Origin: a virus
Lineage: Duplodnaviria; Caudoviricetes
Direction: 5' to 3' (one strand)
Length of the DNA: 64,000 nucleotides
Virus record (IMG/VR): IMGVR_UViG_3300025098_005131
Position 1 is the first letter of the stretch. Every line of letters starts with the position of its first letter. The notes under the pieces were generated by a model that was not told the DNA's origin, did no database searches, and was given only the letters and a program-made list of their open reading frames with translations. The translations under genes and the position numbers were made by a program. Of the stretch, positions 45,825 to 57,778 are shown one piece after another.

Positions 45825-45863
45825 ATTGTTAGTCTCCTATTTTTAAATCTATAAAACTATATA

Positions 45864-48800
45864 TTACGGAAATTCAACACCTGAGTTAGTAATTACAAAA
45901 TCAATTGCAATAAATTCAATAGCTCTTGTAGGCACAATAACAATTTGTCCGTTAAGTCTATTATTATCTACGTCCTGTGCTGTATTGTTTGTATCGTCCA
46001 TAATAACTCTAAAGTCTTCGATACCTTGATTAATCTGAATATTTGCAAGTTGACTGCTAGCAGAAGAAATAAATCTATTTCTAGTCTTTGAGTTGTTTTG
46101 CTCAAATAGTAAACCTTGCGCAATTAACTCTATTCTTCTCTTAATCTCTAAAACAAGTCTTCTTACGTTAACTCTATCAAGTGCAGTTCTCTTTAGCTGT
46201 GTTGTCTTCTGTCCAAATATAACAAATTGTTTATTTGGGAAGTTTGCAATTGGATTAATTCTAGACTCATACAATGTATCTCTATCTTCAGCGTTAAGTC
46301 TAACTGAAATTGAAGAAATAGATTCTAATGCACCTCTTGAAAATCCTGCTGGAGCAAACCAAGGCTGCGAAATGGAATCAGTCAAAGCTAATGCACCAAG
46401 TGCAACAATCGATGAAGGCACCAACACAGATCTTCTAGAATTAACAGCAGCTTCGTCAGAGTCACCGCTATCCAAAACTTTTACGTCCGGAAAGTAAGAT
46501 GCTACATAAGATGAATCCACTTCACGAGTATCAAAATCACCAGCTGTAAGCACAACGTCAGGCTTTGAACTCTCAGTGCCTCTTGCATCAACAAAAACTC
46601 TTTTACTATCTTTGTCATACTGCTCTAAGTCCATTAAGTAAATTGCTTTACCATACTCTTCTTCAATTCTATCCTTAACGAGATCTGTTACAAATCTATC
46701 GCGAATATTTGGTATAGCCAAGACATTATGATTAACAACGAGATCATCTGTCATTATTCTGATCGCGTTTTTATAAGAAGCAATAACATTGTTTAGGTCT
46801 TCACTACCTTGCATAACAGAACCAACGTCAGCCTTTAAAGTTCCATGTATTCCACTTTCAAATCCTTCAATAGCGCCTTTACCTTTTGGTGTGGTTGAGG
46901 TATGAACTGAAGCTGCTCTGTCTGTCATAAAGTAAGAGTCTCTATCAAAGATGTTTAACCCATCAAAACCACCACCCATCGGTGCAGTAAACTTTGCCAT
47001 AACTGAATATTTGTTAAACTTTAAAGTGTCTTCTGCTAAAAGCTTTGCTAAAGAAACTCTGTCAGCTGCATCAATATCGTCATTAGTTCCACCCATTTTA
47101 ATTAAATGTGCTGAAGCGTCATAAACGTCAGAATTAGAAACTTCTGCATTTCTTACGTAAACTGCGCTTTTAAAAACATCGTTTGTTGTCCCAGTTACTC
47201 CGTTAACAGTAGCACCTTTAAGAGCAACCTTTGCCAAAGAAAACTTATTGTTATTATGACTGTCTGATAGTGAGCCAGAAGTAATCACTGTTTGATCTAC
47301 ACCAAAAAACTTTGTATAGTTTGAAAGAAGCTCGTTAAACTCTGTGCTTTTATTTGCATTATTAATGTCTAAAACGCGTGTAGACATAAGACCCCAGTGT
47401 AGAGCAAAGTTAACACTTTCAGACGGAGATGCATCACCTAAGAAAGTTTGTTCGTAAGATTGATTTGTTCTAATGTCACCGTTTGTTACTTTAAATCTAT
47501 AAGGCAGAGGAGGCAAAATAGAATCTAAAAGTTCGTTAACTTTAGCATCACCGGCGCCCGAGTCTACTGCAAAAAGACTGTAATTGGTGTCTGAGTCTTT
47601 TGCTGTCGCATTAAAGTGCAAAGCGTCAATGCCTCTAAACCCAAAAGGAAGTGTTTTTGCTGGAACTTCGCCTTGCATAATTGCATCGCTAACAACAACT
47701 CTTACTTTCTGTGAATTGTTCTTAAACGTACCTTCTCTTACAAGTCTTCTTTCGTTTTCGCTTGCAGCATCAAAGTTAAAGTATACCTTTTGATCACCAA
47801 TTACTCTGCTTATAAAGTTGCTAGAATTAGGATCTAAAGAACACTGGTTGAATGTTTCGTAAATAATAGGTGATTCATCTGTATCTTTTAAATCTCTAAC
47901 TGTAACTGTAAACGTTCCATACTCATCAGTTGGATCTGTGCTTGCTCTTAAGTTAGATATAGATATTTTATATTTGTCGTTTGCGTAAGCACCGTCGTCC
48001 AAAGAATCGAAATGAAACAAGTCATATTCACGTGAACCAAAAGGTTGCGAAATAAACATTGGTGAAGTTGCTGATTTAAATCTTGACTCAAAGTTTTCAA
48101 AAGCGCCTGCAAAGCCATCTGTTTTTTCTTGTAAAAGAGAATATGGCGAGTTTGCAGCAGGTTCTGCAACTTCTGAATCAATAGGGAAATGTGCGTAGAG
48201 AAAATGCTTTTTACTTTCTAAAGCAAAAGGATCTGTATTAAGAACCTTTGATATATACTTGTCGCTACCTGGATCTAAAGAAAAAACGTAGTCTAAACTA
48301 TCTCCCGCTTGGCCTGCATCATCTTTAAATCTAATGTAAAAAAGTTTATTTTGATTGACATGATAGCTGTTTATTTGCTCGGTAAAAGATCCGCTAGCTT
48401 CTTGCAAAGGAATGATAGAGTAGTCTTTGTGAGTAATAATCATTGCTCTAACTATATTGACAAGATTATCGTTACCATTTGGAGCATTTGGGCCACCATC
48501 ATCGTCCATATTTGTAGTAAAAGAGTCGTTATCGTTTATAGATCCTAAACCAAGCCATTCTCCAGCGCTAACCGTGTGTGTAGATGCAAGAAAATAAGAA
48601 GCACCAATTAGCCTTCCGGCTGTACCGCCACCAACAGCATCAGTTCTCGGTGTAAATTTAAATCCAGCGTTTTCTTGGCTTTTGAGTCCGCTGCCTAAAA
48701 CTCTGCAGAAAGTTAGTGCAGAGTTAGTTGTGCTATTTCTAAAATATTCTGCTGCTGCATGACCGCCGAGTCTATTTGGGTCAGGTTCACCAAAAATTCT

Positions 48801-52505: not shown

Positions 52506-52871
52506 TTAACATTTTTTACAAACAGAAACGTTTAAGTATGAAATTGCATATTGCAAACCATTTTCCCACGATACAGTTAATTTTGTTGCAAACCCTTGCT
52601 CGTTAGATTTAAAGCTTAAAACTCTACCTTTTAATCCATCTCTTAAATTATTTTGAACGCAATCACCAGCAGAAACTTTCAAGCTTGAAGAAGCAACGCT
52701 TTTTACAGCTGCTTTTTTAGGCGCAGGCTTAGCTTCTGCTTTTTTAGGAGCAGGCTTAGCTTCTGCTTTTTTAGGCGCAGGCTTAGCTTCTGTCTTCTTA
52801 GAAGCAGGTTTCTCATCTGGTTTTTCTAAATTAACCTTTTTATCTTCTTCTGATTTTTTAGCTCTCGACAT
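52506..52871 (-). CDS. Lys/Ala/Pro-rich (histone-H1-like) repeat protein with a C-terminal SH3-like domain
   Basis: EAKPAPKKA x3, then VSAGDCVQ...KGRVL...VSWENG. Confidence 0.65.
   Translation of the reverse strand: MSRAKKSEEDKKVNLEKPDEKPASKKTEAKPAPKKAEAKPAPKKAEAKPAPKKAAVKSVASSSLKVSAGDCVQNNLRDGLKGRVLSFKSNEQGFATKLTVSWENGLQYAISYLNVSVCKKC
52711..52791 (-). repeat. 27-bp tandem repeat x3
   Basis: gcttttttaggMgcaggcttagcttct at 52711, 52738 and 52765. Confidence 0.95.
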
Positions 52872-52890
52872 TTTAGTTTACTCCTTTAAA

Positions 52891-53826
52891 TTATGCAAAT
52901 GTTAACGCAGCGCCATTAGCTGACTGAATTGCTCCGCTAACATACCATTTTGGTGCTGCAGCTCCATCACATAGAAGCTCAAAAAAGTCTCCTGCAGTGT
53001 CGTGAGCATTTACAATTGTCATAGCATCACCTGATACTTCCTCTACTCCTCCTGCATTAAGAACTGTACCAACCAGAGAGCCTTCGTCTCGGGCAGCTAG
53101 CGCGTCATCTTTTGGAATTTCTACAACAATATTTCCATCAATAGCAGCTGCTACCAATCTAATTCTTAAACCAGAAGCATCAGCAATTGCATCTTGTCCT
53201 TGATTAGGAATAATATTAGCAGTTAAGTTTGTAGCAATTACACCTGCAGTTGTTAGTGCAGCTTCGTCTTTATCTACAAGTACTCCGTTTCTATTTCCAG
53301 GTAAAGTTGAGTCAATTTGAAAATTAGTTCCACCTTGAACAGCTTGCACAGCTACTCCACTCAAAGGAGAGAAATCGTTTGCGCCTGTTCCTAGCAAAGT
53401 ATGCAAATTTGTAATTGCTCCGTCGATATCAAGGCCTCGCTCGAGCTGAAATGTACTTACTCCAGACGAATCTGTTGAAACTAATTTACCGTTGTTAGCG
53501 TCAGCAGCGTCTGCAACGACTTTTAGTTTAAATTTCCTACCAAATCCTTCAAATGTAAATACTTCATTTACAGTAAATGGTCCATTAGCAGCTGTAAATT
53601 TTACAGATGTTCTAACTCCAGCAACTGCAGGAAGTAAAACTGATCTGACGTTTGCGCCTAAAAGCAATTCTTTTCCACTGTCAGCAACAGATAGTTGTTC
53701 TGTTGCAGTTGCTAATGTTCGAACAGCTTGACGATGACCTGATAACTCACCACGAAGATCAAGTGATGAAGATGTTGATGATTTTTGAACTAAACCTTTT
53801 TCTTTTGTATATTCTACGCTTGGCAT
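52891..53826 (-). CDS. Virion fibre/decoration-like protein, long paralogue
   Basis: MPSVEYTKEKGLVQKSS...LDLRGELSG; DSGK...LLPA; ends AGDFFELLCDG...KWYVSG. Confidence 0.6.
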   Translation of the reverse strand: MPSVEYTKEKGLVQKSSTSSSLDLRGELSGHRQAVRTLATATEQLSVADSGKELLLGANVRSVLLPAVAGVRTSVKFTAANGPFTVNEVFTFEGFGRKFKLKVVADAADANNGKLVSTDSSGVSTFQLERGLDIDGAITNLHTLLGTGANDFSPLSGVAVQAVQGGTNFQIDSTLPGNRNGVLVDKDEAALTTAGVIATNLTANIIPNQGQDAIADASGLRIRLVAAAIDGNIVVEIPKDDALAARDEGSLVGTVLNAGGVEEVSGDAMTIVNAHDTAGDFFELLCDGAAAPKWYVSGAIQSANGAALTFA

Positions 53827-53856
53827 ATTATTTTTCCTTTTTATTTTTATATTAAA

Positions 53857-54366
53857 TTATACTACAAATATTAATCCGCCAGCTGCTTGGCTTACGCCTT
53901 GAACTGACCATTTTGAGCCTGTGTAAAATAGCTCAATAAAATCTCCTGCTTTGGCTGTGTCTGCTACAAACCGAATTTTCGAATCATCTTCTGGGTCATT
54001 GTTAACAGCTAAATTTGCTCTATCAACTGCTGCGCCTCCTTGATATAAAGTTCCAGCAAAATCGTGAGCACCATCACCTTGGATTACTTCTATTGTTTTT
54101 CCTGCTGCAACATCTATAGCAGTTATAACTCTATATTTAACACCTGTTTCAGGGGCAGCTGGTAATGTTATATCAATATCGTTATCTGCGTTATGAGTAA
54201 CAAGAAAAACTTTTCCTGAATCTTCATTTTTTAAAGTATTAGCTGCTGCTGATATTGGCACAATTTTTTTTCTAAATCCTGATAATTCACCACGCAAGTC
54301 TAGAGCAGCATCTGTCGATGACTTTTGCACTAACCCTTTTACTTGCGTATATTCTACACTTGGCAT
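53857..54366 (-). CDS. Virion fibre/decoration-like protein, short paralogue
   Basis: ATG 54366 follows AAGGAGG (the track starts at 54399). MPSVEYTQVKGLVQKSS...LDLRGELSG; DSGKVF...TLPAA; AGDFIELFYTGSKWSVQG. Confidence 0.62.
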   Translation of the reverse strand: MPSVEYTQVKGLVQKSSTDAALDLRGELSGFRKKIVPISAAANTLKNEDSGKVFLVTHNADNDIDITLPAAPETGVKYRVITAIDVAAGKTIEVIQGDGAHDFAGTLYQGGAAVDRANLAVNNDPEDDSKIRFVADTAKAGDFIELFYTGSKWSVQGVSQAAGGLIFVV

Positions 54367-54451
54367 AACTTCCTCCTTTTCGGATAAACTTGTCCGCATG
54401 ATTCCGATGCACTGGCGGGGTCAGCTGTTATGTTTGCATCGGGCCTAATGC
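54366..54451 (-). ncRNA. Putative structured cis-regulatory RNA leader
   Basis: GC-rich island in an AT-rich intergene: 8-bp CCGAUGCA/UGCAUCGG stem enclosing CUG-ACCCCGC-CAG, outer GCAU/AUGC pairing, and CGGA/UCCG next to the RBS. Confidence 0.55.
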
Positions 54452-54461
54452 TATATATTAC

Positions 54462-54490
54462 AAAAAAGGTGCATTTTTTACGTGCACCTT
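54462..54490 (-). terminator. Rho-independent terminator
   Basis: AAGGTGCA/TGCACCTT stem followed by a U-run on the minus strand. Confidence 0.7.
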
Positions 54491-54527: not shown

Positions 54528-54788
54528 TTACTCAGAGTCACCGGCAGGTTCTGCATCAACAACCTCGTCAGACTCAGGCATACTTACTGCTTCAGCCTCA
54601 TCGCCACTCGCATCGGCAGCTTGTGCCTCTGCTGCTTGTCTCTCTTGCTCTTCACGAGGTACTAGTCGATCAATTGCTTCTTGCAATGTTGAAGCATCTT
54701 GCAAAGAAAAGGCTCCTCGTCGTTGCGCTACTTGTACTGCCGAGAGAAGAATATTTATTGATTGAACTTGTTCTGGTGATAATTGCAT
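54528..54788 (-). CDS. Hypothetical phage protein with an acidic tail
   Basis: 86 aa (QSINILLSAVQVAQRRGAFSLQDA), AAAGGA RBS, own promoter and terminator. Confidence 0.7.
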   Translation of the reverse strand: MQLSPEQVQSINILLSAVQVAQRRGAFSLQDASTLQEAIDRLVPREEQERQAAEAQAADASGDEAEAVSMPESDEVVDAEPAGDSE

Positions 54789-55114: not shown

Positions 55115-55152
55115 TGTATTCTCCTGTTAAACTATTACTATATTATATATTA

Positions 55153-55440
55153 CTAAATGTCGCTTTTTTCTTTTAAGATATTAATGTCTTTTTCTATAAT
55201 TGTCATTTTTGTTTCTATTTTAGCTAAAGTGACTTTAATTTCTTGGACAGATGCTAATAGTTCTTGTAGAACACTTTCTGTAACTTTTGCTTTGTCTTCT
55301 AAAGTATTCACTCTTGCTTTTAAATCTGCCATTTCTTCGGCATTTTTTTTTGAGTCTTTATGCCAAGAGTAAAACAAACCTAAAACTGATAAAACTGTAC
55401 CTATTGATAACACTAAGTTTGGTTGCATATCCACATGCAC
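55153..55440 (-). CDS. Single-TM coiled-coil protein (holin/XhlA-like candidate)
   Basis: LVLSIGTVLSVLGLFYSW followed by heptad repeats; AGGAGG RBS. Confidence 0.5.
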   Translation of the reverse strand: MHVDMQPNLVLSIGTVLSVLGLFYSWHKDSKKNAEEMADLKARVNTLEDKAKVTESVLQELLASVQEIKVTLAKIETKMTIIEKDINILKEKSDI

Positions 55441-57095: not shown

Positions 57096-57250
57096 TATAT
57101 TTATCTACTTTTCCTTCTTGCTAATGAAAGTGTGAAAACCTAGCAAGTCAAACGGCATTATGACACTTCTTATACACTGACACACTTCTTCTTCGCTTTA
57201 TATATAAGACGCATCAATAGATAAATATAACGTAATACTTCTATATATTA

Positions 57251-57778
57251 CTAGCTTTTCTTAACTTTGTAATATTTTTCTTTAGATATTGTCGGACTAA
57301 AAAAAGCCAAACGATTCCCTTCAGGGTCTGTTATGTGGAACGAAGCATCTCCCCAAGGATTTTCTATTAACTCACCAATTTGAATATTCTTTTTTTGCAT
57401 TTTTTCGTAAAGCTTATAAACATCACTTACTTTGACTGATAATGATACGTTGCCATAAAAAGCTTTATTTGAATAGTTTCTTGGACCTTTAGAAAAAAGC
57501 TCAATAAGATTGCCTCCTACATTTATTTGTGTCCCATCGCCATCACTATATCTCCAATACCTAACAACAGGAAACTCGAGTATCTTATTATAAAACCTAA
57601 CCATTTCTTGCATGTTTTTAACATAGATATGCACTCTTACTTCTTTTGAATACGCATTCCAGCTTTTGCCTAAATCAATACCAATTTCTTTTGCTAATTG
57701 AATTTCTGATTTTGAAGGTGAAGTATTAATACTTTTTCTTTTATTTTCTTTTTTTTGGTATTGATTTAAAAATGGCAT
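57251..57778 (-). CDS. VOC/glyoxalase-bleomycin resistance family protein
   Basis: Start set to ATG 57778. HIYVKNMQEMVRFY, IELF, ENPWGDASFHITDPEGNRLAF. Confidence 0.85.
   Translation of the reverse strand: MPFLNQYQKKENKRKSINTSPSKSEIQLAKEIGIDLGKSWNAYSKEVRVHIYVKNMQEMVRFYNKILEFPVVRYWRYSDGDGTQINVGGNLIELFSKGPRNYSNKAFYGNVSLSVKVSDVYKLYEKMQKKNIQIGELIENPWGDASFHITDPEGNRLAFFSPTISKEKYYKVKKS

Follow-up and report, generated by a model that had tools for sequence, protein, structure and literature searches.

HDV-like self-cleaving ribozymes are built as a nested double pseudoknot in the order P1, P2, P3, L3, P3', P1', P1.1', (P4), P2', with a 2-bp P1.1 that adjoins P1, and in the HDV and CPEB3 ribozymes the G at +1 forms a G.U wobble at the base of P1. 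Their catalytic cytosine occupies the first position of J4/2, where changes from C to U, C to A and C to G are reported to give inactive molecules, and both minimal HDV-like ribozymes without P4 and the 'theta' ribozymes of phages have been described (PMC10879173). Translational pseudoknot riboswitches (preQ1-II, SAM-II/SAM-V and fluoride) are small pseudoknots of 5' leaders whose weak helices hide the ribosome-binding region and whose junction nucleotides are invariant. In phages, cis-acting RNA structures at or near the initiation region form the operators of T4 gene 32 (a pseudoknot), T4 gp43, RegA and the MS2 coat protein (a hairpin).

The locus considered here is an 83-nt mRNA leader on the minus strand of a phage sequence of 64 kb (the window, meaning the whole 64,000-nt stretch of DNA that was analysed). 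Like the pseudoknot riboswitches, it is a small 5'-leader pseudoknot with weak helices, in which a near-invariant AAUCAU junction accompanies an overlap with the ribosome-binding region (helix P2 over the AUG), and like SAM-V it is marine. It differs from them in having no sequence or model match, in being a double rather than a single pseudoknot and in preceding virion-appendage genes, which encode spike/fibre-like virion proteins and a lysine-rich (K-rich) protein, rather than genes with a single metabolic or transport theme that would point to a ligand. With the phage operators it shares a cis RNA structure at or near the initiation region, and with the T4 gene 32 leader specifically a 5' pseudoknot in a T4-type phage. 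In contrast to those operators, it belongs to a late virion-appendage operon and not to replication genes, pairs with the AUG itself, is unrelated in sequence and has, at most, a candidate repressor.

Position and transcript context

When the sequence was re-read, the minus-strand letters of the leader matched exactly those given in an earlier note on this DNA, which had proposed a structured, HDV-ribozyme-like control RNA ahead of fibre-like genes. The whole element spans 83 nt (54364–54446, minus strand): it opens with the A predicted as +1 (54446) and closes with the last base of the start codon, G (54364), so that its 5' edge is the predicted start site of a late-type promoter and its 3' edge the AUG of a gene for a 169-aa protein. 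Covariance model R1 scores this element at 115.8 bits, against 12.8 bits for the runner-up match in the window, of which the GC content is ~32%. Sequence conservation between loci begins exactly at A 54446, five bases past a TATATA block, and an AT-rich block of TATATA type lies at an equal distance from the leader in all related loci. The terminator and the AT-rich promoter-like stretch that the earlier note had seen before the leader are both present: a terminator-like hairpin with a U run, of the intrinsic type (54466–54490, minus strand), closes the upstream 86-aa gene (54528–54788), and the late-promoter-like motif GTAATATATAG (54451–54461, minus strand) stands 5 nt upstream of the first conserved base. 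The terminator stem shows compensatory changes of its own between loci (GGUGCA/UGCACC versus GGCGCA/UGCGCC, among the window, L006–L008 and L016–L022), and this hairpin is therefore also under selection. The small acidic-tailed protein encoded upstream of the terminator (window 54528–54788; MQLSPEQV..LLLAAVQ.AQ.RGAF.L) is kept in the most divergent leader-bearing loci (L103:131–319 and L109:2954–3169).

The 11-mer GTAATATATAG recurs with 0–1 mismatch on the coding (minus) strand ahead of other genes, at 45857–45867, 55143–55153 and 57241–57251. The motif GTAATATATA[G/A] is found just upstream of three other minus-strand genes besides that of the leader and, judged from this recurrence, is probably the late-promoter consensus of the phage, unlike the TATAAATA of T4; in two more distant relatives (L112 and L120) the same promoter position is occupied by CTATTTATCG. 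In T4 late promoters TATAAATA lies at −13 to −6, and since the spacing from the motif matches that of T4 late-promoter transcription starts, 54446 is the likely +1; both the promoter role and this start site are read from the motif and from T4 late-promoter geometry. The sheath protein encoded further downstream is ~31% identical to that of Microcystis phage Mel-JY01, the nearest cultured phage, which places the source as an uncultured, distant T4-type myovirus.

A start-codon-spanning double pseudoknot conserved among relatives

Altogether, 28 distinct versions of the leader were found in marine metagenomic and IMG/VR phage contigs. Four marine metagenome contigs encode a homologue of the 169-aa protein with only 37–51% identity behind a leader that is identical nearly letter for letter, and metagenomic homologues of this protein reach down to 35% identity. 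Pattern scans of IMG/VR DNA with four different sub-patterns returned 26 further loci. In a search with the conserved gp14-like neck protein, the loci of 80 of 498 relatives were examined, among which R1, a covariance model built from the core set, finds ten clearly divergent leader copies (29–101 bits); two copies that are more divergent still, L103 and L109, were recognised by eye. Mean pairwise DNA identity is 92.6% in the leader, compared with 70.9% in the gp13-like gene, 74.7% in the gp14-like gene and 63.4% in the 83 nt upstream. The 64-kb window has a single copy of the leader, as does every one of five phage records of 36–153 kb, and it co-occurs with a cassette of K-rich and MP..KGLVQ genes upstream of the neck genes, while relatives without the cassette have no leader. 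A comparison with Rfam, which the earlier note had suggested, matched no family in the leader at E ≤ 10, either on the minus strand (1.2-kb search) or on both strands (131-nt search), and blastn and tblastn against cultured phage genomes found nothing related to the leader region or to the 169-aa protein. The single prokaryotic match in a scan of 185,579 genomes lies in high-GC coding sequence of a Terriglobia MAG, has no P1/P3 and was set aside as chance. These sequence comparisons provide good support for a new structured RNA family that is, so far, confined to uncultured marine T4-like phages.

Single-sequence folding energy is not significant (z = −1.2), and RNAfold returns the nested stems of the earlier note, so that folding energy alone could not decide whether the structure was real. 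Comparison of homologous leaders, likewise suggested in that note, revealed both conservation and covariation. For the core set, aligned as 19 distinct rows, the share of paired cells is 99.6%, compared with 26–40% in slid controls, and eight pairs show double changes, with at least one double change in every helix. In the covariance-model alignment of the broad family, P1, P3 and the loop pseudoknot have 99.4% of their cells paired (30–37% in slid controls); both partners are changed in 11 of the 15 pairs, and covariation scores 0.436 where shuffled data give 0.134. Compensatory changes back five helices, namely P1, P3, the loop pseudoknot, P2 and, confined to the core subfamily, a Shine-Dalgarno (SD) hairpin. 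Only the sense strand tolerates G.U pairs (10 GU at P1 pair 4 and 11 GU at the closing pair of P3); as a G.U on the sense strand would be a C.A mismatch on the other, selection acts on the transcript and not on duplex DNA.

All members share a common geometry, in which four bases, A[AG]G[CU], are followed by a 7-bp P1 and by a single-stranded stretch that carries the 5' strand of P2 and stops one base short of P3. P3 has 4 bp and a loop of 6–7 nt, and the 3' strand of P1 comes immediately after that of P3. The 6-nt junction AAUCAU then leads to four bases pairing with the last four loop bases, and an A-rich linker with the Shine-Dalgarno sequence leads to the 3' strand of P2 at the start codon. 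The calculated helix energies are −13 kcal/mol for P1+P3, −5.0 kcal/mol for the loop pseudoknot, −3.5 kcal/mol for the P2 duplex and −2.6 kcal/mol for the SD hairpin. The 5' AGGC, the AAUCAU junction and the first loop base are near-invariant even where every helix is rewritten.

P1 is formed by CCGAUGC (54436–54442, minus strand, as for all strands given here) and GCAUCGG (54404–54410), the latter directly continuous with P3. It occurs in 12 sequence types that keep 6–7 of the 7 pairs, with double changes in five of the seven, and its first pair is C-G in 27 of 28 elements, C.U in one and U-A in L103 and L109. The outer stem of the earlier note therefore stands as 7 bp, CCGAUGC/GCAUCGG, but its eighth pair, A-U, is not conserved. 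P3 pairs GCUG (54422–54425) with CAGU (54411–54414) and covaries at its closing pair, seen as G.U, G-C, A-U, U-A and C-G, while the rest is CUG/CAG; what had been taken as a 3-bp inner helix thus holds in sequence and is actually 4 bp long with the closing pair. The 7-nt loop L3, ACCCCGC (54415–54421), is as originally described, and its last four bases (CCGC, 54415–54418) form the 5' strand of the loop pseudoknot, pairing with GCGG (54394–54397) at a P1.1-like position. All four pairs of this helix show double changes, in six compensatory forms (CCGC/GCGG, CCAC/GUGG, UCGC/GCGA, UUGC/GCAA, CCCA/UGGG and UCGA/UCGA), to which L103 and L109 add another, AUAC/GUAU. A pairing of the 5' GG with the CC of the loop was considered and rejected as inconsistent across variants. 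Between the 3' strand of P1 and that of the loop pseudoknot lies the AAUCAU junction (54398–54403), with A27/A28/U26/C28/A26/U28 of 28 elements, and it is unchanged in L103 and L109.

The earlier note could find no canonical P2, but the helix is there: CAUAAC (54427–54432) forms a pseudoknot with GUUAUG (54364–54369), which includes the start codon AUG (54364–54366). P2 falls into seven covarying classes, whose cognate helices have a mean of 5.7 bp compared with 2.3 bp for non-cognate combinations. Five pairings are distinct (CAUAAC/GUUAUG, UAUAAC/GUUAUA, UGAUC/GAUCA, UAUAAUC/GAUUAUG and CAUGAU/AUCAUG), that of L120 is near-identical to one of them (UGUAAUC/GAUUAUG) and the seventh class, L099, has 3 bp only. 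L103 and L109 contribute the form UUGAC/GUCAA, in which the 3' strand abuts the AUG. The 3' strand always starts 3–5 nt ahead of the A of the AUG and always abuts or overlaps the start codon.

At the P4 position, UCC-GAAAA-GGA (54374–54384) forms the SD hairpin, in which the first three bases of GGAGG (54372–54376) are paired; it alternates between C-G and A-U (UCC/GGA versus UCAC/GUGA) in 8 of 19 core variants. Because this hairpin is restricted to the core subfamily and missing from divergent members, SD pairing is not universal. The CGGA/UCCG hairpin that the earlier note had placed next to the ribosome-binding site is broken in 6–9 of 17 variants and was rejected on covariation. A switch between GGA/UCC and the SD hairpin was dropped because variants with UCAC/GUGA cannot form the alternative. 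The in-frame upstream AUG at 54399, to which that note had also drawn attention, is UUG in L033 and L034 and out of frame in indel variants, and a leader peptide starting from it was rejected since neither codon nor frame is conserved.

The observation itself is real, in that the leader has this fold, is conserved, lies at the start codon and is linked in single copy to the cassette. The central proposal of the earlier note, an unannotated, conserved and structured cis-element in a 5' leader, is borne out by covariation and conservation across relatives, and its interpretation as a whole is partly supported.

The variable cassette downstream

Directly upstream of the neck genes, the leader is followed by a cassette that varies from phage to phage in the number, order and sequences of its genes. 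In the window it comprises three cistrons on the minus strand: the 169-aa MPSVEYT..KGLVQ protein (53857–54366), with a spike/fibre-adaptor-like fold in its structural model; a 311-aa paralogue with the same N-terminus (52891–53826); and a 121-aa lysine-rich protein with a C-terminal small beta-barrel (52506–52871), which is present in every cassette, first or last. None of the cassette proteins has a match in PHROGs or Pfam. Past the cassette lie neck and tail genes, recognised by one weak head-tail adaptor match in PHROGs and by a gp15-like protein and a sheath protein in Pfam. The AlphaFold model of the 169-aa protein (pLDDT 78) combines an all-beta body with an N-terminal arm of low confidence, on which the conserved MPSVEYT..KGLVQ motif lies, and it resembles tailspike N-terminal domains, a capsid spike, Mtd-N and tail-fibre proteins. 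Its likeness to tailspike N-terminal and capsid-spike domains makes 'fibre-like', the term used in the earlier note, a reasonable description of the downstream genes. For the K-rich protein the model gives a confident five-strand small barrel at the C-terminus (pLDDT 86), with weak Tudor/KOW/SH3 matches (E about 0.01).

Across loci (window 52506–54366 and L005–L035) the cassette is hypervariable and holds one to three proteins of 72–323 aa plus the lysine-rich protein. The only part that the cassette proteins have in common is an N-terminal arm, M-P-x-[VI]-x-[YIV]-[TS]-x-x-K-G-L-V-Q, which, as far as the sequences indicate, appears to be a shared peptide that attaches interchangeable surface domains to the virion. 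In L120 (2745–2770) the first gene after the leader hits a stop after seven codons (MPKVSYL, then stop); either decay of the cassette or a mistake in assembly could account for this. On unrelated phage contigs (L001, L009 and L010), proteins distantly homologous to the C-terminal domain of the 169-aa protein are encoded between scaffold-like and capsid-like genes, a slot that is the usual site of head-decoration proteins. Such distant homologues in other phage types (L001, L009–L011) were discounted as further cases of the leader, as they adjoin capsid genes and have no such leader.

Proposed translational control and its alternatives

The strand order P1, P2, P3, loop pairing, P1-3', P1.1-like 3', optional P4, P2-3' is that of the HDV-like ribozymes, and the leader also shares with the HDV-like and theta ribozymes a 7-bp P1, a short P3 directly continuous with P1 without a linker, a 6–7-nt loop pairing downstream of P1 and an occurrence in tailed phages. 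Its P4 is dispensable, as in minimal HDV-like and phage theta ribozymes (PMC10879173), and its near-invariant junctions are typical of catalytic cores. If the leader were a self-cleaving ribozyme, be it a divergent HDV-like one or one of a new class that has this fold, the cut would fall close to the 5' base of P1, leaving a 5'-OH structured mRNA end or splitting read-through transcripts from the upstream gene. We regard such a ribozyme as improbable in view of the residues on which HDV-type catalysis relies: across the 28 elements the bases ahead of P2-3' are GGAA, GAAA or UAAA (AAAC in L099), so that the first J4/2 position is never C, and P1 has at its base the C-G described above, or U-A in L103 and L109, instead of G.U. 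In place of a 2-bp P1.1 adjoining P1 there is a 4-bp helix, built on the 3' end of L3 and set off from P1 by the 6 nt of the invariant AAUCAU, and the P2-3' strand is itself the start-codon region of an mRNA. With a start at 54446, moreover, cleavage would remove just the 4 nt before P1, which are themselves conserved; the leader does not adjoin tRNAs, and no Rfam ribozyme model, HDV-type covariance models included, matches at E ≤ 10. Because the catalytic C, the G.U, an adjacent P1.1 and an Rfam match are all missing, the leader is, by the tests run on its sequence, an HDV-type fold outside the HDV family. Of the HDV-like resemblance described in the earlier note, the helix order holds, while membership of the family is not supported. 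Other residues of the leader may provide catalysis, and the leader may be the ribozyme relic that the earlier note listed among its readings. A new RNA class with an HDV-type fold and a different active or binding core, acting as a riboswitch-like sensor through which a small molecule would gate late virion-appendage synthesis, or as a ribozyme without the canonical catalytic cytosine, is unlikely on balance.

The predicted 5' end lies 4 nt before the fold, its P1+P3 stack is stable (−13 kcal/mol) and 5'-terminal stem-loops stabilise bacterial and phage mRNAs, all of which would suit a knotted domain that blocks 5'-end-dependent RNases and pairs with the start codon only incidentally, in closing the knot. 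A plain 5' hairpin would suffice for this purpose, however, and the compensatory upkeep of P2 at the start codon in seven classes is left unexplained, as is the invariant junction, so that stabilisation of the mRNA is a doubtful account of the element as a whole. A role at the level of DNA, as a boundary that promotes homologous recombination and shuffles the hypervariable cassette in the manner of T4-type promoter/stem-loop cassettes, would fit a leader ~93% identical beside a cassette that varies in gene number, order and sequence, and L043 and L044, which share a pseudoknot variant and differ in P2 type, hint at recombination within the element. We consider it very unlikely nonetheless, as compensatory changes and G.U pairs confined to the sense strand indicate selection on RNA pairing, divergent members keep the fold and not the sequence, and there is one copy per genome (in the window and the five records of 36–153 kb), whereas T4-type mobile cassettes occur as several dispersed copies. 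Both roles, stabiliser and recombination boundary, could coexist with translational control.

Our preferred reading, which we hold to be rather more probable than otherwise, is that the leader is a new cis-acting translational control RNA, a start-codon-masking double pseudoknot at the 5' end of a late phage mRNA. As the knotted leader pairs with the start codon of the following gene, control of the output of the variable virion-appendage protein set is its most likely function. In the mechanism proposed, a late-type promoter would fire and the transcript would start at ~54446, its first 83 nt folding into a compact nested double pseudoknot with P1 stacked with P3. The P3 loop would pair with the GCGG 6 nt past P1 and the internal CAUAAC with GUUAUG at the AUG; members of the core subfamily would additionally tie up the Shine-Dalgarno sequence in a short hairpin. 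Once folded, the leader would occlude the region where translation of the cassette's first cistron initiates, and this translation would consequently be throttled or gated. Weak pseudoknot helices combined with a near-invariant AAUCAU, 5' AGGC and loop start are typical of RNAs in which a tertiary core or a bound partner keeps such helices together. The combination suggests a trans-acting partner that, by specific tertiary contacts, either holds the fold or releases it. This partner could be a protein of the phage or of its host, the lysine-rich small-barrel protein of the cassette being one example, or else a small ligand. The repressive effect of the folded leader, and the existence and identity of such a partner, are what we infer from these features.

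The position of the leader in the initiation region fits an operator bound by a repressor protein, and every cassette encodes the K-rich small-barrel protein. The small barrel and its weak Tudor/KOW/SH3 matches make this protein a possible binder of nucleic acid and, by extension, a candidate autogenous regulator, although only as a lead; small barrels are common in virion proteins, which counts against it as the partner. Against translational control itself, the ribosome might open P2 easily, as this helix has just 5–7 AU-rich pairs (3 in L099); for mere attenuation a fold so elaborate and invariant would be superfluous, and an RNA of HDV-type topology may be catalytic.

The leader offers unusually clear comparative evidence for a double pseudoknot and, at 83 nt, is small enough for direct biochemical and structural work with clear-cut outcomes (cleavage, or binding of a ligand or protein). 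It ties an HDV-type fold to start-codon masking and not to the known catalytic signature, and so bears on how this fold has evolved and been reused. For the phages that carry it, the leader marks a control point for hypervariable virion surface proteins, which probably shape the interaction with the host.
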